A stretch of DNA of 35,280 nucleotides. It comes from Candidatus Daviesbacteria bacterium. GTDB lineage: Bacteria; Patescibacteriota; Microgenomatia; Daviesbacterales; UBA10151. The translations under genes and the position numbers were made by a program. This document shows, piece by piece, positions 1,951 to 22,060 of this stretch (position 1 is its first letter; every line of letters starts with the position of its first letter). The stretch is taken from contig JAUSHE010000004.1 in NCBI GenBank assembly GCA_030648435.1, forward strand, positions 1 through 35,280, read 5' to 3'. Below the pieces are notes generated by a model. The model was not told where the DNA came from, ran no database searches, and saw only the letters and a list, made by a program, of their open reading frames with translations.

Positions 1951-1984
1951 ATTGTGGTCAACTGAAACTAATGTCCAAAGTTAT
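1951..1984 (+). repeat. 34-bp direct repeat, copy 1 (left flank of hicBA)
   Basis: attgtggtcaactgaaactaatgtccaaagttat; 33/34 identical to 2509-2542. Confidence 0.95.
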
Positions 1985-2211
1985 TTGAGGAGTTTGATAA
2001 ATTTATCTTTTGTAATTTCTAAATCCTTTTTGATAATCTTTGTTAACAATCCAATGCCGATGGTATCCGGCGGATGAATAGGTATGGTAGTCCTCCTACC
2101 ATCAGAATGCGTATAGACTGCATGGCTGCCACTTTGATCTCTAAATCTAAAACCAAGCCTTGTGATAATTTTTACTAAATCACGCGCTTTAACTTGGGGT
2201 AATTTTGACAT
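1981..2211 (-). CDS. hicA: HicA-family toxin
   Basis: 76 aa; LGF..QSGSHAVYTHSDGRRTTIPIH..IGIGLLTKII. Confidence 0.92.
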   Translation of the reverse strand: MSKLPQVKARDLVKIITRLGFRFRDQSGSHAVYTHSDGRRTTIPIHPPDTIGIGLLTKIIKKDLEITKDKFIKLLK

Positions 2212-2453
2212 TAGATGGAAACTTCAATAGAAGTGAGGCTAACCGGCTGAGTCCTAGGTATTTCCTGCTTTTCTGATCTCATCACTTTAAGGTTAAGCAC
2301 TATTGCATCACGGATATTAGTAATTGCTTTTTCCAAAGTCTTACCCTGCGTATGACAACCAGCAAGTTCCGGACAATCAGCCACAAAAAACCCATCCTCA
2401 TCTTTTTCAATAATAACAGGGAAATTATATGTTGTTGTTTTAATCTTTTTCAT
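2211..2453 (-). CDS. hicB: HicB-family antitoxin (short, no DNA-binding tail)
   Basis: FPVIIEKDEDGFFVADCPELAGCHTQGKTLEKAITNIRDAI. ATG 2453 is preferred because TGG-TATAAT lies just upstream. Confidence 0.92.
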   Translation of the reverse strand: MKKIKTTTYNFPVIIEKDEDGFFVADCPELAGCHTQGKTLEKAITNIRDAIVLNLKVMRSEKQEIPRTQPVSLTSIEVSI

Positions 2454-2508
2454 AAGTGAATTATACCACAAAATCCCAAAATGTGCTAAGCCACAATTAT
2501 GTAAACTA

Positions 2509-2542
2509 ATTGTGGTAAACTGAAACTAATGTCCAAAGTTAT
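2509..2542 (+). repeat. 34-bp direct repeat, copy 2 (contains the extended -10 and first codons of the pilin-adhesin gene)
   Basis: attgtggtaaactgaaactaatgtccaaagttat; TGG-TAAACT followed by ATG 2529. Confidence 0.95.
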
Positions 2543-4843: not shown

Positions 4844-4876
4844 AGTCTTGATACAATCAGTTTACATGATTGTATC

Positions 4877-4906
4877 TTGACAAGCACTTTGTGATACGGA
4901 TATAGT
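4877..4906 (+). promoter_or_regulatory. Sigma70-type promoter for the pilin at 4919
   Basis: TTGACA (4877-4882), 18-nt spacer, TATAGT (4901-4906). Confidence 0.7.
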
Positions 4907-5803: not shown

Positions 5804-6112
5804 ATGAATATCGGCACAATAGTAACTCCAAACATAAAAGGGCAAATAGTCATCCCCAAAAAAATCAGGGACGGGTTAAATATTACAAAAAATACTCCTT
5901 TAAATATACGAGTTGTGGATAATGGCATTCATATTCATCCTATTGCAGAAGTAATAACAAATGCGGAAGAGGATAAAAGACATAGAGTACTACTGCAGAT
6001 TTTGAAGGAGACTCAGGGGGCCTGGGCAAATGATAAGGAATTTGATAAGAGACAAAAGAAAATGAGGAAAATGGAAATTGCTGCGACAAAAAGAATGAGA
6101 AAAACATGGTAA
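5804..6112 (+). CDS. AbrB/MazE/SpoVT-family antitoxin
   Basis: KGQIVIPKKIRDGLNI motif; overlaps the downstream PIN gene. Confidence 0.9.
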   Translation: MNIGTIVTPNIKGQIVIPKKIRDGLNITKNTPLNIRVVDNGIHIHPIAEVITNAEEDKRHRVLLQILKETQGAWANDKEFDKRQKKMRKMEIAATKRMRKTW

Positions 6113-6495
6113 GCAGAAAAGTTACTGTTGATACCAGCATTATTATCGATCACTTAAGGCAAATTAAACAATCGAAAACTCTTCTGAGAACAATCCTGAA
6201 AGATAAACATACAGCATTTATAATCTCTTCAGATGTAATACAAGAATTATTTGCAGGACAGAGCAGTAAAACTGTAGAGCCAAAAGATGAAATACGAAAG
6301 ATTCTACAGTCATTCCATATTATTGATGTGACCCCTGAAATTGCCGAACTGGCAGGACAAATTATGAGAGACTCCAAACTAAGTATTCAGTTTGCTGATG
6401 CTGCCATTGCTGCTACAGCCATTACTAACAATGCCCTGCTTGCCACTTTAAATAAAAAAGATTTTCAGGGGATTCCTGATTTGGAATTTGTGTAA
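6106..6495 (+). CDS. vapC: VapC-like PIN-domain toxin
   Basis: VDTSIIIDHLR..ELFAG..FADAAIAATA..LATLNKKDF. Confidence 0.92.
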   Translation: MVSRKVTVDTSIIIDHLRQIKQSKTLLRTILKDKHTAFIISSDVIQELFAGQSSKTVEPKDEIRKILQSFHIIDVTPEIAELAGQIMRDSKLSIQFADAAIAATAITNNALLATLNKKDFQGIPDLEFV

Positions 6496-12874: not shown

Positions 12875-13025
12875 TCCAAAACCTATGGACTGCTTCCCTT
12901 CGATAAACTCAGGGTTATAACCAGTTTATGGCTTTGGTTAACTTACTGTCAACTACGTTCAGTTTTCATGAACGTAGTCAACTTCCTTTCTCTGGCAAGT
13001 TTATACCGAGCGATAGCGAGGTGCT
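12875..13025. repeat. ~150-bp direct repeat, copy 1 (promoter + hairpin + REP-like units)
   Basis: Near-identical to 13871-14021 (offset 996). Minus strand has TTGACA-18nt-TAAACT; stem actacgttca/tgaacgtagt. Confidence 0.97.
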
Positions 13026-13095
13026 TGATTTAATTCTGATAAAATCCTGATACGTTTAGTTTCATAAACGTATCCTGACGAGAGGGAGTCTAAAA

Positions 13096-13518
13096 TTACT
13101 TAACTAATTCTTCTAATAGTTCTTGGGGCGTTATAACCTTAAGCGGTTTAACCAATTTTCTAATATCCGGTTTTAGTAAATGTTTCTTGTCTAAAGTTAC
13201 TAAGAAATCACATTTGGTTAACTTTGCTCCTGCTATCACATGTACATCTTTTTCAACTACCGTACTTTTATACGGTTTCGCTTCAGCCAAGGAGATTCTT
13301 TTCCTTATCAAAATTGAATTATCATGCATGAATTGCCTAATTTCTTTAGCGCTTTTCCGTATCTTGACTGAGTTATCCTCCACCTCTTCAATAACTGTCC
13401 GTGAAGTAATGCCAATAATTGCTTTTAATTTTATAAATTGGACCAGTTTAAATGATCCGCCAGTTGGAGAAAGTAGCGCTGGAATTATAACTGAGGCATC
13501 AAGGAATACTTTAATCAC
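13096..13518 (-). CDS. PIN-domain toxin (PIN_3-like)
   Basis: KVFLDASVIIPALLSPTGGS..EKDVHVIAGA..DFLVTLDKKHLL. Confidence 0.92.
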   Translation of the reverse strand: MIKVFLDASVIIPALLSPTGGSFKLVQFIKLKAIIGITSRTVIEEVEDNSVKIRKSAKEIRQFMHDNSILIRKRISLAEAKPYKSTVVEKDVHVIAGAKLTKCDFLVTLDKKHLLKPDIRKLVKPLKVITPQELLEELVK

Positions 13519-13798
13519 TTTTTAAAGATTTAAGCTTCAAATCTATTTTCCGGCTCAACTTTTTGGTTAGTCTGTCTGCCTTCAACCACTGCTCTATTTC
13601 AACATCACTAAAAGTTCTGTACGGAACATTTTCTTCAGGTGCCTCTATAATTAACTTATTACCCACTTTTTCTGCTTTCACTATTCCGCCTTCTTTCAAA
13701 CCAAGCTCATCTCTCCATTCTTTCGGAATTGTAACCATACCCTTACCAAGGATTCTTAAATATTCTTGCGGAGATTCATTGGTTAATACTTGTTTCAT
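13511..13798 (-). CDS. AbrB/MazE/SpoVT-family antitoxin
   Basis: KGMVTIPKEWRDELGLKEGG. Upstream are TTGACA-17nt-TACAAT and the palindrome TTTACAATGTAAA over the -10. Confidence 0.9.
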   Translation of the reverse strand: MKQVLTNESPQEYLRILGKGMVTIPKEWRDELGLKEGGIVKAEKVGNKLIIEAPEENVPYRTFSDVEIEQWLKADRLTKKLSRKIDLKLKSLKSD

Positions 13799-13870
13799 AA
13801 GTTTAAATTTCTAACTTTTTACATTGTAAACTAACTCGGTGTTCCTGTCAATAACAAGAAAGGCTGTAGC

Positions 13871-14021
13871 TCCAAAACCTATGGACTGCTTCCCTTCGAT
13901 AAACTCAGGGTTATAACCAGTTTAGGGCTTTGGCTAACTTGCTGTCAACTACGTTCAGTTTTCATGAACGTAGTCAACTTCCTTTCTCTGGCAAGTTTAT
14001 ACTGAGTGCAACTGAGGTGCT
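13871..14021. repeat. ~150-bp direct repeat, copy 2
   Basis: Four substitutions against copy 1 over the first ~136 bp, then a short diverged patch and a shared gaggtgct. Confidence 0.97.
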
Positions 14022-14063
14022 CACCTCAGAGTCGAAGACCTGACGGGAATGAGATCGATTTTT

Positions 14064-14492
14064 CTAATCAACACTTCTCAGATATTGCAGGAAACTTGCG
14101 GGGGTCATTACCGCTATATTAAAATCTTTCTTAATTTTATCTGTTTTGAAATGTCTGATGTTATAGGAAATAAGAAAGCTTGCTTTGGACTTACTTGCCC
14201 CTGCTATGATATGCGCATCATCAGGATCAATTGTATACTCAGAATAGTTTAATTCAATTTCTTCTAATTTTTCCTTGATAAACACCTTTTTAAATCTTTT
14301 CTGAAAAAGCTTCTCGAGTTTAGCCTGATCAATCTTTAATCTATCAGCAACCCCTATTAACTCCTTTTGAGAGATATTTGAAATAAAAAACTCAAGACCG
14401 CGGGCTTGATTAAGTAAAAAGTAAGCAGCCCCCAAGGAGGAAATTAACGAAGAGACAATCACATCCGAATCAACAAATACCTTTTTAAACAT
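14064..14492 (-). CDS. PIN-domain toxin (PIN_3-like)
   Basis: KVFVDSDVIVSSLISSLGA..DPDDAHIIAGA..FLISYNIRHF. Confidence 0.92.
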   Translation of the reverse strand: MFKKVFVDSDVIVSSLISSLGAAYFLLNQARGLEFFISNISQKELIGVADRLKIDQAKLEKLFQKRFKKVFIKEKLEEIELNYSEYTIDPDDAHIIAGASKSKASFLISYNIRHFKTDKIKKDFNIAVMTPASFLQYLRSVD

Positions 14493-14756
14493 TTAGACAT
14501 TTTTCAACTTAGACCTGGTTTTTTTAATTGCTGATTGTATTTGGGGAATGTTTCTTAAATCTTCTTTTTCTGCCAAATATAAGTCATAATCCAGCCCTGT
14601 AAAAACAAAGGCTATGGAGCTTGCCGGAATACGATAAACCTTGCCGATCTTTTTAGCAATTATTTCACCCCTTTGGATTAAATCGTAAATTGTATTTTTA
14701 CTCAGTTGCAGGATATCAGCTACCTGCTCTGGGGTATATACCCTAGTACTAATCAT
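14493..14756 (-). CDS. Excisionase-like HTH_17 DNA-binding protein, probable antitoxin
   Basis: YTPEQVADILQLSKNTIYDLIQRGEIIAKKIGKVYRI; abuts the PIN gene. TTGACA-17nt-TACAAA ends 6 nt before the ATG. Confidence 0.85.
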   Translation of the reverse strand: MISTRVYTPEQVADILQLSKNTIYDLIQRGEIIAKKIGKVYRIPASSIAFVFTGLDYDLYLAEKEDLRNIPQIQSAIKKTRSKLKNV

Positions 14757-14802: not shown

Positions 14803-16152
14803 CTAACATTCTCTAATGGCAGGGCACTTGGGACATTTTTGTCCGTGCCTTACTATACACCAAATATATTCCCTACAAGCCCCACATCTAATACAAAAAT
14901 CTTCGTCTTTGAGCTCTGTAAGCGTAACCGTGCTTGGCATAATTACACCGCCGGATTCTGCCCCTAAACTGCTTCCCCTTAATATTCTGGCAGCCATACT
15001 AGCTGGACAACCTGCCCGACTTATCAAAAATGCAATTTCCGGTCCGAAATTATCTGAATTTTGAAGGAACGGATTATGAATTATTTTTACTTTGTATATG
15101 TTAGAAAAACTTTCCCGAATTGTAGGGTTTTTTCTTAAATGTTCTCCTGCCAAACTTAATACTGTACGTTCTATCTCTTTTGTAACCCTCTCTTGGATAT
15201 TTCTATCACCTAGCTGGTAGATTCTTCCCATAATAAACTCTCTAAGGTTAGAAATTAACTCTTCCTCCTTTTGATCAAATAACAACAACTCATCAAACTT
15301 TCTGATCTCTTCCCTTGTTTGTTCAATCGACCTTATTTCCGGAGGGCCTTCTTTTTGTAAAAGTCTGATATTTTCTCTCCCGCGAACTGCCAGTATTTTG
15401 TCTAAAACATACTCAAAAGGGTTAGTATCTGCTCTAAGTAAAGCAGGATTTCTGACTATATTTGCTAATCTTTCCTGCTCATTTTCACCTTTTAATACTT
15501 CTTCTGAAACTCCTAAACTTCTCATAACTGCTGTTGATTGGGCTTGATCTAAATCTGTAATCAGAGTCAAACCCTGTAAAATACCCTTCTGGTTTTTCCA
15601 GAAAATCATTGTTTCTGTGTTAAGGTGATTATGGCCTCGGCCGTATTGATCTACATAACCGCTCCAGCCATCAGGGCTCATTATTACAGCAAAAGAATTA
15701 AGGTCAGCCGCAAGTAGAAAAGATTCAATTATTCTTGATGCTTGCAGTACTGAGCCTTTGCGCTCCTGAGAGGAAATTGCATCAATTACTGGCCGCCCAT
15801 TATTCCCAACCATTCTTAAAACGCCGTCAACAACATCAAACCTATTTTTGTGAGGGAGAACTGTCTTGGATTTTATAAACTCCACATTATAAGTTCTGAT
15901 ATTAACTTCCAGTTCATCTGTGGCAAAATTTAACGCTTCAACCAAATTCTTGCCGGAAGCTAAAGCAAAATTTAAATCATTACCAAAACGGTCCATTTCC
16001 AACCCTAAAAGGAAACCAGTCTCTTCTGTTAAAACAGAATCCCGTCCCAATCCCGGGTACATATCAACTCTTTTGAGAGTCTGTATAGTAGAAATTTCGG
16101 CAGAATGGATTGGAGTTGGTAGATAACCTCTTTCGAGTTCTTGAATTGGCAT
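14803..16152 (-). CDS. Hypothetical protein (449 aa) with a Cys-rich C-terminal metal-binding-like tail
   Basis: Ends FCIRCGACREYIWCIVRHGQKCPKCPAIREC; AGGAG shortly before the ATG. Confidence 0.85.
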   Translation of the reverse strand: MPIQELERGYLPTPIHSAEISTIQTLKRVDMYPGLGRDSVLTEETGFLLGLEMDRFGNDLNFALASGKNLVEALNFATDELEVNIRTYNVEFIKSKTVLPHKNRFDVVDGVLRMVGNNGRPVIDAISSQERKGSVLQASRIIESFLLAADLNSFAVIMSPDGWSGYVDQYGRGHNHLNTETMIFWKNQKGILQGLTLITDLDQAQSTAVMRSLGVSEEVLKGENEQERLANIVRNPALLRADTNPFEYVLDKILAVRGRENIRLLQKEGPPEIRSIEQTREEIRKFDELLLFDQKEEELISNLREFIMGRIYQLGDRNIQERVTKEIERTVLSLAGEHLRKNPTIRESFSNIYKVKIIHNPFLQNSDNFGPEIAFLISRAGCPASMAARILRGSSLGAESGGVIMPSTVTLTELKDEDFCIRCGACREYIWCIVRHGQKCPKCPAIREC

Positions 16153-16482: not shown

Positions 16483-17496
16483 ATGGATGCCCATCCGATC
16501 CCGCAAAATGTCACATCCTTCCAGTTTAAGCTGGTGGGAGATATGACTTTGAAACAGTTTTTATACTTGGCCATAGGAGTAGGCTTTGCCTATCTTTTAT
16601 TTGTCACAGTTTCTTCAAAGTATCCATTAATTACCTGGCCTATTATTATTATTTCCACTCTGTTGGGGGTGGCTTTTGCTTTTTTGCCTATTGGTTCAAG
16701 GCCACTGGACTACTGGCTGGCGGCATTTTTAAAAGCTGTTTATTCTCCAACTAAAAGAGTTTGGAAGAAAAACGGGAAAAATTATAAAGAAGATCCTTTG
16801 TTTGAGAGCCGCTTGGTGATGTACCTGGCCGGACAACAAACGCAGGTAACAGGCGACAGTTTGCAGGCGACAGCAGTACCCCAATCTCAACCAATAGCGC
16901 CTCTGCCCACACGGGAAGAATTGGGAAAAACGGTTGACCTGGCCAGACAGGCCCAACAACTGCAAATGAAGATTATCCAGACCGAGAGAACCTTATCCCA
17001 GATCAAAACCGAGGCCGAAAAACCGAATCCCATTCCCATAGACTATAGCCAACAGGCCAATGCAACTTTGGCTGATCTGCAAAGCCTGGTTAAGCAAGTA
17101 TCCGATGTTAAAACACAAATTCAGAAAGTACGAGAACCTATAAAAGAGCACGCTTCTGCTGCAACTTCTATCACGCACGAAAGAGTAAAAGTAATTGTGC
17201 CGACTAAACCAAGGCAAACCACAGTTGCCCTAACCACATTTCCAAATGTCATAAACGGCATTGTCAAAGATACTACAGGCAATTATTTGGAGGGGACTGT
17301 AGCCGTGATTTATGACAAAGAAGGTTTACCGGTTAGAGCTCTAAAATCCAATAAGCTGGGTCAGTTTACCGGCTCAACTCCCCTGCCAAACGGTACCTAC
17401 ACTCTGGAACTTGAGAAAGATAATTTTAGCTTTGATGTATTACAAATAGACTTGAACGGAGGAGTAATGTCTCCATTACTCATTGCAGCAAAATGA
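16483..17496 (+). CDS. prgI: PrgI-family (VirB3-like) protein with coiled coil and C-terminal carboxypeptidase-regulatory-like beta domain
   Basis: HPIPQNVTSFQFKLVGDMTLKQFLYL, two TM segments, RPLDYWL..P.KRVW; C-terminal INGIVKD..GQF..LPNGTYTLELEK. Confidence 0.85.
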   Translation: MDAHPIPQNVTSFQFKLVGDMTLKQFLYLAIGVGFAYLLFVTVSSKYPLITWPIIIISTLLGVAFAFLPIGSRPLDYWLAAFLKAVYSPTKRVWKKNGKNYKEDPLFESRLVMYLAGQQTQVTGDSLQATAVPQSQPIAPLPTREELGKTVDLARQAQQLQMKIIQTERTLSQIKTEAEKPNPIPIDYSQQANATLADLQSLVKQVSDVKTQIQKVREPIKEHASAATSITHERVKVIVPTKPRQTTVALTTFPNVINGIVKDTTGNYLEGTVAVIYDKEGLPVRALKSNKLGQFTGSTPLPNGTYTLELEKDNFSFDVLQIDLNGGVMSPLLIAAK

Positions 17497-18260
17497 GCAC
17501 AACACAAGAACATTTAGCTATTTCCGATATTCAAAACGACATATTGCTTCTTAAAAACGGCGGCGGGGCACTGGTGCTGTCTGTATCAGCTGTAAATTTT
17601 GGTTTACTCTCCGACAGGGAGCAAGTGGCAATCATCTCTGCTTTTGCGCAAATGCTAAATTCCCTGTCTTTTTCCATTCAGATAGTTATCATGTCGGAGA
17701 GACTTAACATCAGTTCGTATATTGCACTTTTAAATAATGCCCAGAAAGCCCAAACTAATCCCCTGCTTGCAAAAATGATCACCAACTATAAAGAATTTAT
17801 CCAGAAAACAGTTAAAGAAAATGAGGTGCTGGATAAAAAATTCTATATTGTCATTCCCCTGTTTGCGCTGGAGCTGGGACTGACCGCTTCAAAAGAACAT
17901 CTGGAACAAAAAATTAAAACCGTGCTAATGCCCAGAAGAGATCAGATCATCAGACAGCTGGGAAGGGTTGGCCTAAATGCAATTCAGTTAACCAAAAAGG
18001 AATTAATTGAACTATTCTATGACATATACAACGGAGCAGCGCTGGAAGAAAAACCAATAAGCGCACCAATAAATCCTTCCGAACTGACAGTCAGGCTGAA
18101 ACAACCTGAAGTCCGACTATCCACACCAGGGGAGTCTCCTTCGGCTCCGCTCAGGACAGGCAATCCCACCCCCGGTGTGTCTTCGCCTCCAATACAACAA
18201 GAACCAATCGTAACGCAAGGCGCGAGATCTCATCCTTTTGTGGTGGAGGAACTGGAATGA
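17493..18260 (+). CDS. TraC/VirB4 N-terminal-like accessory protein
   Basis: VLSVSAVNFGLLSDREQVAIISAFAQMLNSLSFSIQI..KKFYIVIP..ELIELFYDIYN; translationally coupled between prgI and virB4. Confidence 0.75.
   Translation: MSTTQEHLAISDIQNDILLLKNGGGALVLSVSAVNFGLLSDREQVAIISAFAQMLNSLSFSIQIVIMSERLNISSYIALLNNAQKAQTNPLLAKMITNYKEFIQKTVKENEVLDKKFYIVIPLFALELGLTASKEHLEQKIKTVLMPRRDQIIRQLGRVGLNAIQLTKKELIELFYDIYNGAALEEKPISAPINPSELTVRLKQPEVRLSTPGESPSAPLRTGNPTPGVSSPPIQQEPIVTQGARSHPFVVEELE
18121..18180. repeat. Composite hairpin with a REP-like core inside a CDS
   Basis: cacaccagggg..ccttcggctccgctcagg..cccccggtgtg. Confidence 0.7.
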
Positions 18261-20017
18261 AATTGCCAAACCTATTTAAAAAATCAAATACCCTGACAGA
18301 ACCGGTGGCTCCTCAATTGACCCTCGGGGATGCAATAGCTCCTTCGGAAATTGAGGTAGATTTTAATTTTTTGCGGGTTGATGATCATTTTTTCAGAACA
18401 TATTTTGTGTCAGACTATCCCAGATTTGTCGATCCAAACTGGCTGGAACCGCTTATTTCTTTTGATCATCCATTACTCATTTCCATGTTTATTTATCCTT
18501 CACAGTCTCAGGGGGTTTTGGATGAATTAAAACGCAAAATCGCAGAAATGGAAGCCACCCTGCAAACGGATATGGAAAGAGGCCATGTTATTGACCCTGC
18601 TGTTGAAGTAGCACTGGAGGATGCCCAAACTTTGCAGGCACAACTTGTTAGGGGAGTTGAGAGATTTTTCCAGTTTGCCCTATATGTCAATATTCCTTCG
18701 TCGTCTTTGGAGGAACTTCATAACACTTCCAAGCTTGTTGAATCAACTCTGGCATCCTTATCTATTACTGCCAGACAAACAACACTACAGATGGAAGACG
18801 GATTTAAATCGGCGCTGCCTCAGGGTACAGACTTGCTGAACCTAACCCACAACATGGATACTACGTCCCTTGCTACTACTTTTCCTTTTGCCTCATCCGA
18901 ACTGACCGCTAATGAAGGCATCATGTACGGAATCAACGAACACAACGACTCGCTGATTTTATTTGACAGGTTTACTCTGGAAAATGCCAATTCTGTAATT
19001 TTTGCCAAAGCCGGAGCCGGTAAATCCTATCTTGTTAAATTGGAGGCTTTGCGTTCATTAATGTTTGGAACAGAAATTATAGTCATTGACCCTGAGCAGG
19101 AATATTTACCGCTCTGTCAGGCAGTAGGGGGAGAATATATTAATTTTTCCGCTTCCTCGCCTGTCAAGATCAACCCTTTTGATATGTCAGGTGAGGTTAT
19201 TCCCGGAGAAAATGAGCTGGGACGGAAAATCCTGTCATTAACCAGTTTTCTGCGGATTGTTCTGGGTAACTTAAACGCCCAGGAAAATGCAGTTTTGGAC
19301 CGCGCCTTAAAACAAACCTACCAAATAAAAGGCATTACAGATGATCCAAAAACCCAAAGCTTGACCCCGCCATTGATGGAAGACTTGTATAAGGTTTTAA
19401 TTGGTATGGAGGAGGGACCGGCTATGGAGCTGGCTGCCAGACTGGAGAGATTTATCAAAGGTTCGCTGACAGGTATTTTTTCCTCGCAATCCAATATTGA
19501 TTTATCAAATTCCTTTACCGTTTTCTCTGTACGGGATCTGCCCGATCAACTGCGGCCCCTGGCTATCCATATGATATTGGATTATGTTTGGACCAAAATC
19601 AGGGGCCACTTAAAAAAACGGATTCTGATTGTTGATGAGGCCTGGTATTTAATGCGGAATCAGGATTCGGCAGATTTTTTGGTGGATATTGCCAAAAGGT
19701 CCAGAAAATATTATCTGGGACTGACCACAATTACTCAGGATATTGAAGACTTTCTCTCTACAGAACGGGGCAAAGAGATTATTTCCAATTCATCAATCCA
19801 AATCCTGCTAAAACAAGCTCCGGCTTCTATCGACCTATTGTCCCGCGTATTTAATCTATCAGAAGGAGAGCAAAGACTGCTGATGTCGGAAGGAATAGGG
19901 GAAGGGATATTTTTTGCCGGCAGCACCCATGTGGCAATCAGAGTAGTTGCTTCGGAGGAAGAACATAATTTAATCACTACTAATCCTGCTGAAATACTGG
20001 CGAGACAGGGCGTTTAG
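18257..20017 (+). CDS. virB4: VirB4/TraC-like T4SS ATPase
   Basis: Walker A AKAGAGKS, VIDPEQEY, INPFD, Walker B ILIVDEAW, KRSRKY..ITQDIEDF. Confidence 0.95.
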   Translation: MKLPNLFKKSNTLTEPVAPQLTLGDAIAPSEIEVDFNFLRVDDHFFRTYFVSDYPRFVDPNWLEPLISFDHPLLISMFIYPSQSQGVLDELKRKIAEMEATLQTDMERGHVIDPAVEVALEDAQTLQAQLVRGVERFFQFALYVNIPSSSLEELHNTSKLVESTLASLSITARQTTLQMEDGFKSALPQGTDLLNLTHNMDTTSLATTFPFASSELTANEGIMYGINEHNDSLILFDRFTLENANSVIFAKAGAGKSYLVKLEALRSLMFGTEIIVIDPEQEYLPLCQAVGGEYINFSASSPVKINPFDMSGEVIPGENELGRKILSLTSFLRIVLGNLNAQENAVLDRALKQTYQIKGITDDPKTQSLTPPLMEDLYKVLIGMEEGPAMELAARLERFIKGSLTGIFSSQSNIDLSNSFTVFSVRDLPDQLRPLAIHMILDYVWTKIRGHLKKRILIVDEAWYLMRNQDSADFLVDIAKRSRKYYLGLTTITQDIEDFLSTERGKEIISNSSIQILLKQAPASIDLLSRVFNLSEGEQRLLMSEGIGEGIFFAGSTHVAIRVVASEEEHNLITTNPAEILARQGV

Positions 20018-20032
20018 TGATACCTTTATCTT

Positions 20033-22060
20033 ATGGCACAATTTTTAATGTCAAGATTTTTAAGCCAGGCGCTTGAATGGAAAGACAGATTCCCCGCTGC
20101 TAAAGTTTATGCGGGCTTAAAATTCGAGCCTTTTATTTATACAAAAGCCCGACTGACTTTCCCGGACTACAGCAGACTATATCCTGATAATAAAGAATTT
20201 ACCCAAAAATTTGCCAGAGACTTAAGAAATAAAAACGAGCAGCTGTTAAAAATAATCAATCCCGAGGCGGTTACTTGGGAGCATACTGCCGCGAACAAAC
20301 AGTTTGAAGAAGAAGTGAATCTGGAACAACAAAATGTTGCCATGGCAACCGGACAATCCCCAGCCCAACAATTTTCTTTAATTGCGCCTCCGCCACCGGT
20401 AATCAGTCAAACCGGGCAACCTGCGCCTGAAACAGAAGTACCTCAAGATCCCGCCCAGGCTCAACCGCAAACAGAGCCGGCTCCGATTCAATCGGAGCCA
20501 ACAGTCAGCCAACCTTCATTCCAAGCTCCCGGGCTCCCGGCATCTTTTGTTAACACATCAAAAAATGTTGGTTCTAATGCACAAATATTTACCAAAAAAA
20601 ATCTTGGCAGATTAGGCAATGGTTTAAAAAATATGTTTGGAAACGCTGCAAATCTTGGAGGAAGAGCCGGACTGGGAGCTATAAACCATGGAGGAAATTT
20701 TTTAAGCAATCTTTCCAATAGTAGGTTAGGACTCTCAAACAGTCTTGGGCAAGCCAGATCAAATCTATTATCAAAAGGGGGCGGGAAAAAAGCAGCTTTA
20801 ATCTTTGCCGGAGTTTTTTTTCTGATATTTTTTATGGGAGCAGTCGGCGGATTACCGGGAACCACCCCCACCGACGAGGCTTCGCCAAGTTTGCCTGGAG
20901 CTGGAGCCAGTGATATTACTAGCTGTAAATTTACCAGAGGTCAGGAGAATCCCAAAGAAGCCAGCTTTAAAAGCAATCAACTTCTGTCATATATACAAGA
21001 AGCGTCTCAAAAATCAAACATTCCTCCGGTAGTGCTGGCAGCCTTTATCAGGGTAGAATCTCCATCCTCATCCAATAAGTCAGATGCAGAAATTGCTAAT
21101 TATTCTGCTACTTGCGCACAAAGCTCTACAGGAGCACTGGGAATTATGCAAATTCAACCTCCAGGCACAACTTCTGCGAAAGGAGACCCGGCAAGCTGCG
21201 ACGATTGTATCGACGCAGGAGCAAAGCTCGTTGGTAAAAACGTCTCTACTCTGACCACGGCAGATTACTGTGACCCAAGAACATCTATTATTGTTGGTGC
21301 CGGATGGATTTTAAAGAAAATGAGTAAATTGGGTTATGGCGATGGCACAAAATGGGATCCAGCATGGACAAATAACAAAACAGCTATTGAAGCCCTGGTG
21401 AATACTTATTATGGATGCTTACAGTATGGAGGAGCCACAGATTGTACAGGTCCTTATAACTATGCAGATGATGTTTTAACCAGTATTCAAAACTGCCAAG
21501 CTACAGGCAGTGCAATTGGTGTTAGCGGTTGTCCTGCTGTAGGCAAAATTTCTACTCCTTATGGTTTTAATATTCCAGGTTACCCTGAAGGTGTAAAAAA
21601 TGATGATTGTGGTAATTTACTTCTCTGTCATAATGGTATTGATATTGCTGCACCAGAGGGAACCCAAGTTAAATCGCCTATGGAAGGTGATATAACAATC
21701 GTAGGACAATCTAATGCCAGAGGGCGATATATAGAAATTGATAATAAAACCTCTGACTTGGCAGTTACTCTAGAACACCTACAAACAGTCACAGTTAAGC
21801 TAGGTGACCATGTTTCACGAAACTTCCCTGTGGGTACAATGGGTTCTGGAGGGGAAGGAGTAACTGGCTCTCATGTCCACTATAAAATTACCAAACCTAT
21901 AATAGGTGGGGCGCCAATAAACCCGCTTCCTACCCTAGGTTCTGCCTTAACAGATCAAGACCCAGCCTTGAAATTATCCGACCAAATAAGTCAAAATGAT
22001 TACGGTCTCGTAAAACCAAGTAGCGGCAGTAATGATAATTGGGGAAAGTGCAGCCAATGA
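20033..22060 (+). CDS. Membrane-anchored bifunctional peptidoglycan hydrolase: SLT/lysozyme-like + M23 peptidase (VirB1-like)
   Basis: TM KKAALIFAGVFFLIFFMG; SLT motifs LAAFIRVES and SSTGALGIMQI; M23 motifs HNGID, EHL, GSHVHY. Confidence 0.9.
   Translation: MAQFLMSRFLSQALEWKDRFPAAKVYAGLKFEPFIYTKARLTFPDYSRLYPDNKEFTQKFARDLRNKNEQLLKIINPEAVTWEHTAANKQFEEEVNLEQQNVAMATGQSPAQQFSLIAPPPPVISQTGQPAPETEVPQDPAQAQPQTEPAPIQSEPTVSQPSFQAPGLPASFVNTSKNVGSNAQIFTKKNLGRLGNGLKNMFGNAANLGGRAGLGAINHGGNFLSNLSNSRLGLSNSLGQARSNLLSKGGGKKAALIFAGVFFLIFFMGAVGGLPGTTPTDEASPSLPGAGASDITSCKFTRGQENPKEASFKSNQLLSYIQEASQKSNIPPVVLAAFIRVESPSSSNKSDAEIANYSATCAQSSTGALGIMQIQPPGTTSAKGDPASCDDCIDAGAKLVGKNVSTLTTADYCDPRTSIIVGAGWILKKMSKLGYGDGTKWDPAWTNNKTAIEALVNTYYGCLQYGGATDCTGPYNYADDVLTSIQNCQATGSAIGVSGCPAVGKISTPYGFNIPGYPEGVKNDDCGNLLLCHNGIDIAAPEGTQVKSPMEGDITIVGQSNARGRYIEIDNKTSDLAVTLEHLQTVTVKLGDHVSRNFPVGTMGSGGEGVTGSHVHYKITKPIIGGAPINPLPTLGSALTDQDPALKLSDQISQNDYGLVKPSSGSNDNWGKCSQ

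Follow-up and report, generated by a model that had tools for sequence, protein, structure and literature searches.

The window analyzed here is the whole of a 35,280-nt stretch of DNA (contig JAUSHE010000004.1, positions 1 to 35,280) from a groundwater bacterium of the Candidatus Daviesbacteria type, the genome of which measures 784 kb and is 93% complete. The window carries the genes of a type IV secretion system (T4SS) of the Patescibacteria type, with six pilins, PrgI, a TraC-like protein, VirB4 and an M23/SLT hydrolase, and adjoining dnaN and dnaA. The GC-skew minimum lies near 24 kb of the window, and the repeat locus described below is ~11 kb from both dnaA and that minimum. A Pfam search of the 35 window proteins detected no integrase or transposase. 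The features of the locus are the following.

1951..2542, plus strand: mirror slot at the pilin end, with hicBA between two copies (1951-1984, 2509-2542) of a pilin promoter and first codons
8369..12853, minus strand: hypervariable 1494-aa gene, the swapped gene
12875..13025, minus strand: repeat copy 1, the native promoter region of the 1494-aa gene, with two -10 boxes, one -35 and an inserted hairpin
12923..12952, minus strand: promoter P2, TTGACA-18-TAAACT, a patch conserved in the family
12952..12978: hairpin insertion with a 7-bp duplication (12948-12954 / 12977-12983); in copy 2 at 13948-13974
12998..13003, minus strand: promoter P1, -10 hexamer TAAACT at a fixed 19 nt from the box, without a canonical -35
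13023..13050: conserved 28-bp box, three heptads at an 11-bp period and a weaker dyad; single copy in the genome
13049..13074: second, related hairpin, inserted where the box ends on the right; its 7-bp duplication is 13044-13050 / 13072-13078
13096..13798, minus strand: toxin-antitoxin (TA) unit A by Pfam, AbrB/MazE antitoxin (13511-13798) and PIN toxin (13096-13518)
13851-13823: unit A's own promoter, TTGACA-17-TACAAT
13871..14021, minus strand: repeat copy 2, a stranded promoter copy that ends 22 bp short of where the start codon of the large gene would be
14012..14043: REP-like unit in place of the box at copy 2, with a box remnant of the first three and last five bases
14064..14756, minus strand: TA unit B by Pfam, HTH_17 antitoxin (14493-14756) and PIN toxin (14064-14492)
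14803..16152, minus strand: 449-aa gene, the right-hand end of the slot, in the same place in most relatives
16483..22060, plus strand: T4SS core (PrgI, TraC-like, VirB4, M23/SLT hydrolase), annotated at Pfam level

The first-pass annotation of this DNA had described two near-identical repeats, and these are indeed present as direct repeats of 151 bp (12875-13025 and 13871-14021), spaced by 996 bp, identical at 142 of 151 positions and each directly 3' of a PIN gene. Three of the differences fall in the first 132 nt and six in the last 19. BLAST of both 300-nt neighbourhoods against the whole genome revealed no third copy, such that the genome-wide search proposed at the time yields two copies only. 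The description of the toxins as distantly similar, with unrelated antitoxins, was likewise accurate: the two PIN proteins are 25% identical (37/146), and Pfam assigns their partners to AbrB/MazE and HTH_17. Unit A is 98.6% identical in sequencing run X3, where homology begins at the end of the box and the large gene is uncovered. The promoter of the 1494-aa gene that had been placed within the repeat, TTGACA-18-TAAACT, is found at 12952-12923 in copy 1 and at 13948-13919 in copy 2. A scan for promoters of this type gave 5 sites compared with 5.7 in shuffles, no better than chance, and support for P2 therefore comes from conservation, the patch recurring in 44 of 129 related contexts. The hairpin (12952-12978) and the REP-like units reported within the repeat were also recovered; however, the hairpin was inserted later, is flanked by a 7-bp target duplication and is absent from relatives. 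An Rfam search returned a single chance match (E 4.9). The last 19 nt of copy 2 are closest to those of a copy beside an AbrB-PIN pair in another genome (16/19). On sequence grounds, the repeat looks like a promoter that stayed in place when the adjacent large gene was replaced by another allele, and not like a dedicated cassette end.

The annotation had taken the repeat itself for the element, whereas the conserved core sits outside it, at 13023-13050 and at copy 1 alone: a search of the genomic DNA of 41 genomes identified the 28-bp box as the best-conserved piece just beyond copy 1. Allowing up to two mismatches, the box is present in 47 of 96 family genomes (reversed control, 0), and it occurs in 19 metagenome stretches. 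Exact matches in a genome collection number 29, labelled Ca. Daviesbacteria (13), Microgenomates (1) and "uncultured Gammaproteobacteria" (15). No match was seen in shuffled sequence or in viral contigs, and an exact 38-nt search of metagenome contigs returned 0. For the counts below, 49 genomes are taken as box-bearing, after weak single matches in G051, G058, G071, G075 and G078 were dropped. Wherever mapped, the box occupies the gap that separates the large gene's start from the stop of the following gene, the median distance to the latter being 21 nt (45 cases). No box is present at the T4SS locus of G023, G106, G107, G098 and G078, where the large gene is shorter. The box-less family members L157-L161 carry a shorter gene, of 613-812 aa, in the place of the large gene.

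The position of the box relative to the promoter is strikingly constant. A minus-strand TAnnnT lies exactly 19 nt from the box in 72 of 82 contexts, whereas none of 24 other offsets exceeds 13, and the same spacing is seen in 20 of 22 held-out sites and in 114 of 126 contexts of a larger set, although the bases between box and -10 vary. The column profile of the box gives a direct-repeat score of 0.281 at a shift of 11, all other shifts scoring 0.021 or less; read as an inverted repeat (an 11-6-11 dyad) the box scores 0.197, below the direct repeat. Among 100 distinct boxes, conservation is highest in the outer positions and the supposed spacer of that dyad and lowest at positions 8-10 (67-75%), with position 15 conserved in 100% and position 17 in 94%; the right arm starts with TTA in 2 of the 100. 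The box is unpaired in folds, and hairpin insertions at its end were seen in 11 contexts. Pho-box and SARP-type sites consist of heptad direct repeats at an 11-bp period that replace the -35 and are bound by OmpR-type winged helices. Similar to these, the box has heptads at an 11-bp period in the -35 place, a fixed distance to the -10, as anticipated for a winged-helix site, and a candidate Trans_reg_C binder. Unlike these, the candidate has a degenerate AAA+ domain in place of a receiver or BTAD, and the last heptad is 18-19 nt from the -10. A Xer-dif reading of the box is made less likely by the fixed -10 spacing, the shift-11 repeat, the conserved centre and the presence of the box at the regulator promoter described next. 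In dif sites, the inner arm bases TAA / TTA are conserved and the central region is free. When 5 near-complete genomes were searched for the classical dif pattern, matches were no more numerous than in the reversed control, and the present genome gave nothing convincing.

The box also covers the promoter of a gene for a 370-aa AAA+/Trans_reg_C (winged-helix) protein, usually as TTGAC-17-TATAAT. By hand count, it lies within 500 bp of the start of this gene in 32 of 37 genomes with a close orthologue; in the remaining 5, three have a diverged box in the same place, one has two genes inserted and one is without the 5' part. A second count gave 30 of 33 loci and is partly circular, since many of these loci were fetched for the box. 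Where the orthologues are only 41-45% identical, the box at the regulator promoter has diverged in step. The structure model of the protein resembles Orc1/Cdc6, its AAA+ domain being degenerate and its Walker A lacking the lysine. By analogy, this layout would be that of an autoregulated winged-helix activator, with binding of the box predicted, and the box can be read as the site of an OmpR-type winged helix, most likely that of the candidate AAA+/Trans_reg_C protein. In the draft assemblies available, the regulator gene was found in 35 of the 49 box-bearing genomes and was not found in 14, including the present genome (93% complete) and G004 (99%, with 8-9 boxes). In 4 genomes, no box precedes the genes for OmpR-family response regulators, and a complementary distribution of response regulator and AAA-wHTH protein was not seen among the 96 genomes, 86 of which contain PF00486. 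Small inserts flanked by two boxes, three of them HicA-like, occur at the regulator locus. That locus (L030, L031, L037, L045, L050 and others) also encodes a divergent 370-430-aa acidic, low-complexity protein, and its intergenic gap contains one or two boxes, sometimes enclosing a HicA-like gene.

To follow the locus across relatives, we mapped the T4SS side in 41 genomes, all picked for carrying the box. A single copy is present in 27 and 2-8 copies in 14; these counts are lower bounds owing to split contigs, and include the dead copy of the present genome and two pairs 10-11 kb apart. As the annotation had suggested might be seen in comparison, the number and identity of TA units vary, from empty slots (G011, G007, G012, G017, G003, G111, G082) through AbrB-PIN only (unit A, in G016 and G005) or HTH17-PIN only (unit B, in G008) to as many as 8 units. 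The single-copy unit-B allele of G008, which is another species, has a different promoter interior. Cargo of the arrays includes PIN, RelBE/YafQ, HigBA-like, Phd-PIN, AbiE, Fic, AAA_14-DUF4143, DUF3800 and one metabolic block. Promoter-bearing copies separate TA units in relatives as they do here, but the rule of one repeat per unit breaks down, as many TA units share a slot with no copy between them, and the 996-bp cassette and the 151-bp repeat are both lengths particular to this genome. Upstream of the box, fewer than 25 bp are common to the copies in 11 of 17 arrays, and at least 25 bp in 6 (106 bp in six copies with the same left base in G004, 122 in G056, 71-88 in G067, 27 in G066, and 35 with 8 mismatches in two metagenome arrays). 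The common element is therefore the box with a short promoter patch and not a long repeat. Thus, of the proposal that TA units accrete at promoters by an integrase-independent route, the lack of an integrase in the window stands, whereas the long repeat is not the common element of the arrays. Five junctions in G004 coincide to the base, 106 bp away from the box and with 0 mismatches, and are more regular than chance joins would suggest. The polarity of decay along arrays, judged by eye, is mixed. All array copies of the box are in direct orientation. An inverted box in G004 (L021:2587) precedes an inserted 98-aa gene, which separates the large gene from the 610-aa gene. Pairs of direct boxes enclose 10-11 kb at L036:9630-19445 and L051:6524-17625, blocks of this kind containing PEP-utilising enzymes and an amidohydrolase (G024) or very large unassigned genes (G044).

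At the pilin end of the T4SS, hicBA was said to follow the same logic. Promoter copies do flank the cargo there; the element, however, is a different one, a pilin-gene promoter without the box. Copies of the pilin promoter separate TA or ATPase cargo in G004, G006, G016 and G003. Nearby, at 1382-1906 of the window, BrnT toxin and CopG-type antitoxin domains are joined in a single 174-aa frame that corresponds to two genes in the relative L171. A third AbrB-PIN pair lies at 5804-6495, between the pilins and the 610-aa gene, and G004 shows the same placement.

The large gene ranges from 1200 to 1760 aa across relatives. Its protein has no Pfam, NCBIfam or Atlas match, and its named homologues are from Daviesbacteria. 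Residues 300-1494 gave a confident, mostly helical model (pLDDT 79.6, pTM 0.82) that, searched as a whole, has no Foldseek match at E 0.001 in PDB or BFVD, the best Z being 7.7 over 88 helical residues; for a search of this scope, the missing structural match is no proof of a new fold. The 449-aa protein at the far end of the slot gave no usable Atlas match. Median identity between relatives is 0% for the large gene (91 pairs), compared with 51% for the 610-aa neighbour (78) and 87% for VirB4 (55), and a variable gene is thus replaced between conserved flanks. An example is the pair G008 and G013, which are 95-96% identical from the box rightwards and 92% identical left of the 610-aa gene, with large genes that cannot be aligned. 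The single box of G008 has the left flank of the first box of G013 and the right flank of its second, the crossover falling at box positions 10-12, at the arm/spacer border of the 11-6-11 dyad and not in the longest shared stretch. In relatives the box forms the right-hand border of the swapped DNA. Positions 1-11 never differ in box pairs with identical upstream DNA, a mapping that rests on 4 cargo-linked and 27 non-independent promoter-linked pairs, and L134 and L081, with 98% identical cargo, differ up to 20 nt beyond the box.

Remnants of replaced alleles stand in the arrays. A signature of the large-gene N-terminus (for example MAERLMA, MAERIIMAEG and MAEGATGQG), built from the native starts and matching 29 of 34 of them, is found in 9 of 34 internal copies, compared with 1.35% of random windows. 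Five of the nine stubs are clear, whereas two stem from a single unit counted in duplicate and may belong to the start of an ATPase. In the other 25 of the 34 internal copies, including copy 2 of the window, the stub is absent. Of the non-native copies, 37 of 47 match native promoter regions.

Taken together, we favor sequential displacement, with a probability of about 0.6: an incoming allele would replace the large gene, bring a TA unit with it and strand the old promoter, the box being the usual crossover patch. Under this proposal different Daviesbacteria exchange the large 1494-aa gene among themselves. DNA that enters the cell, probably by natural transformation, would pair by way of RecA with the conserved left-hand genes and would carry a new large-gene allele together with its promoter, the box and the TA or ATPase unit that follows. 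On the right, this DNA would be joined at a short patch that both sequences share, be it the conserved opening codons of the resident allele, the P2 promoter patch or the box itself. Were the join to fall at the first box, nothing but the gene would be swapped; were it to fall within the 5' end of the old allele, the old promoter would stay behind the new unit, giving one extra repeat. A crossover between two boxes would add or remove whole units. The box would be conserved as a regulator-binding site (OmpR-type winged helix, binding predicted) in the -35 place, and we propose that it is for this reason the longest shared sequence in an otherwise divergent region. Natural transformation, this order of events and the identity of the box-binding protein are what we infer from the arrangements described above. 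RecA, ComEC and DprA are all encoded in the genome, and we count them for displacement; the regulator missing from 14 of 49 genomes, the stubs missing from 25 of 34 copies, the regular junctions of G004 and the crossover at positions 10-12 count against it. The recA gene lies within an 804-aa open frame as two separate matches (G000:C45:2335-4467), probably owing to an intein. If displacement is correct, a row of TA units would be a readable record of array growth without an integrase, at both T4SS promoter ends.

Several of the same observations could be accommodated if the box were also a site-specific recombination site for a host tyrosine recombinase, such as a XerC/XerD-like pair, with the units moving as circular cassettes that each bring a -10, which would turn into a full promoter beside the site. 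We consider this rather unlikely. The 11-6-11 dyad, with its inverted score of 0.197, the invariance of positions 1-11, the G008/G013 crossover at positions 10-12 and the identical junctions of G004 all suit such a site, as do the 11 of 17 arrays that share the box alone, the box pairs around small and partly HicA-like inserts at the regulator locus, and the retention of the box in genomes where the regulator was not found; furthermore, two XerC/D-like genes are present in the genome, scoring under the XerC/XerD cut-offs. On the other hand, conservation that peaks in the outer positions and supposed spacer and is lowest at 8-10, a right arm that starts with TTA in 2 of 100 boxes, a location ~11 kb from dnaA and the GC-skew minimum, and the lack of any match in viral contigs all speak against a recombinase site; the L134/L081 pair differs as far as 20 nt beyond the box despite its 98% identical cargo, the start-codon stubs are left unexplained, and a promoter role is required in any case to account for the fixed -10 spacing and for divergence in step with the regulator. 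A related and doubtful suggestion is integron-like capture without a linked integrase, in which a 28-45 bp element would combine the regulator-bound half of a promoter with a recombination site; it is equally doubtful that the cassette (TA pair, ATPase or large T4SS gene) would bring only its -10 and land under the T4SS regulator. Were the box also a recombination site, it would define a new cassette system. An integron proper was rejected, there being no integrase beside the array and both genome recombinases scoring far below the IntI cut-off, as were attC hairpins, given that the box is unpaired in folds and the nearby hairpins are optional insertions.

According to the original proposal, TA cassettes move by RecA recombination between long promoter repeats and the large gene is a bystander. 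RecA is present, loss of units by this route is plausible, and long near-identical copies exist, of 132 bp here, of 106 bp in G004 (six copies), of 122 bp in G056 and of 71-88 bp in G067. Nevertheless, such recombination covers loss and spread and not the first joining of a new unit to a promoter copy, 11 of 17 arrays are without long repeats, and internal copies hold stubs of the large gene, making this account improbable. None of the 15 contig joints listed, out of 37, skips 996 bp, an event that contigs are unable to reveal because 61 bp of the repeat are identical. The annotation had also named an assembly chimera of two strains, one with each TA unit, as the result that would overturn it. 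Relatives with unit A alone (G016, G005) or unit B alone (G008) exist, and in run X1, which may be the source sample, a contig of depth 18 joins the unit A promoter to the 449-aa gene and no contig bridges the repeat, 61 bp of which are identical, although unit B and the next gene are on one contig. Yet in X1 the left flank is read at depth 55, unit A at 62-67 and unit B with the gene after it at 60; that both TA units reach full flank depth argues against a chimera, the join itself being unbridged by contigs. In addition, 9 differences set the two repeat copies apart, the depth-18 contig departs in sequence at the join and belongs to a different organism, and 13 other genomes show the same architecture. 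A chimera is therefore very improbable.

Sequential displacement has a close counterpart in the T6SS effector-immunity loci of Vibrio cholerae, where, according to the sections consulted of PMC5361080, it proceeds by homology-facilitated illegitimate recombination. Both are secretion loci where a variable gene is replaced without an integrase, on a one-sided homologous anchor that is putative here, and where what is left of the former allele is moved back to join an array. Unlike V. cholerae as described in those sections, the remnant here is a promoter with first codons, the hitch-hikers are type II TA and AAA-DUF4143 units in place of immunity genes, and a regulator box marks the border. Restriction-modification insertions with long target duplication, as covered in the sections consulted of PMC2853133, are similar in involving addiction-type genes, direct repeats over 30 bp, inserts under 20 kb, no mobility gene, a competent host and lower GC content (here 0.35 and 0.34 compared with 0.42-0.43). 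The window fits this pattern, with a 151-bp repeat, an 845-bp insert and no transposase or integrase; an empty site from the same species was not seen, the comparison set containing no same-species genome. In contrast to the insertions in those sections, the event is repeated many times at one promoter across the family, is coupled to exchange of the neighbouring gene, and most arrays share the 28-bp box alone. Rows of 1-kb TA modules bordered by 28-bp sites that may be read as 11-6-11 also recall the Acinetobacter dif/pdif islands, as presented in part of PMC12907356. In contrast to the arrangement given there, the array sites here are all direct and not alternating C/D and D/C, and the box is conserved in its centre and outer ends, tied to a -10, near the origin and without the XerC/D consensus. 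Two defining features of pdif islands fail here, the inner arm with free centre and the alternating orientation.

The chromosomal T4SS of Patescibacteria has been described (PMC12102498), and the window agrees with the passages seen of that report in VirB4, PrgI and a pilin array beside dnaA/dnaN/rnpA, with no relaxase seen in the window. The passages searched make no mention of a promoter motif, a TA array or a hypervariable large gene ("promoter" and "hypothetical" occur 0 times). More broadly, no published report of the box, the regulator or the array was found in a search that took in neither subscription papers nor supplements, and the large gene may be listed in the supplements of PMC12102498, which lay outside that search. 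As far as searched, the conserved box, the candidate regulator and the promoter-copy arrays thus appear new to the literature. The class of mechanism is already known, but the conserved box, its candidate regulator and the exchanged T4SS gene open the regulation and variation of the T4SS in these bacteria to direct tests. The genomes of Patescibacteria are reduced, few of their regulators are known, and the use of their chromosomal T4SS is obscure. For a T4SS gene, the locus offers a candidate pair of regulator and operator, consisting of a 370-aa protein and a 45-bp site, and the large gene, swapped between close relatives, is a prime candidate for a host-interaction substrate.

The hairpins of the locus belong to a dispersed family with the loop AGTTT A/T CAT and variable arms, which are inserted in promoters with short target duplications. 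Members lie in the window at 12952-12978, 13049-13074, 4850-4877 and 2498-2515 and on contigs C11, C19 and C45. Two more dispersed hairpin families are marked by their loops, TCGTCAA in 11 copies and GAGTCAAAGCCCAC in 8 copies with variable arms, and a REP-like 16-mer occurs in 13 copies compared with 0 in a shuffle. Further hairpin and REP copies are found on G000 contigs C2, C5, C12, C23-C25, C28, C29, C32 and C41.
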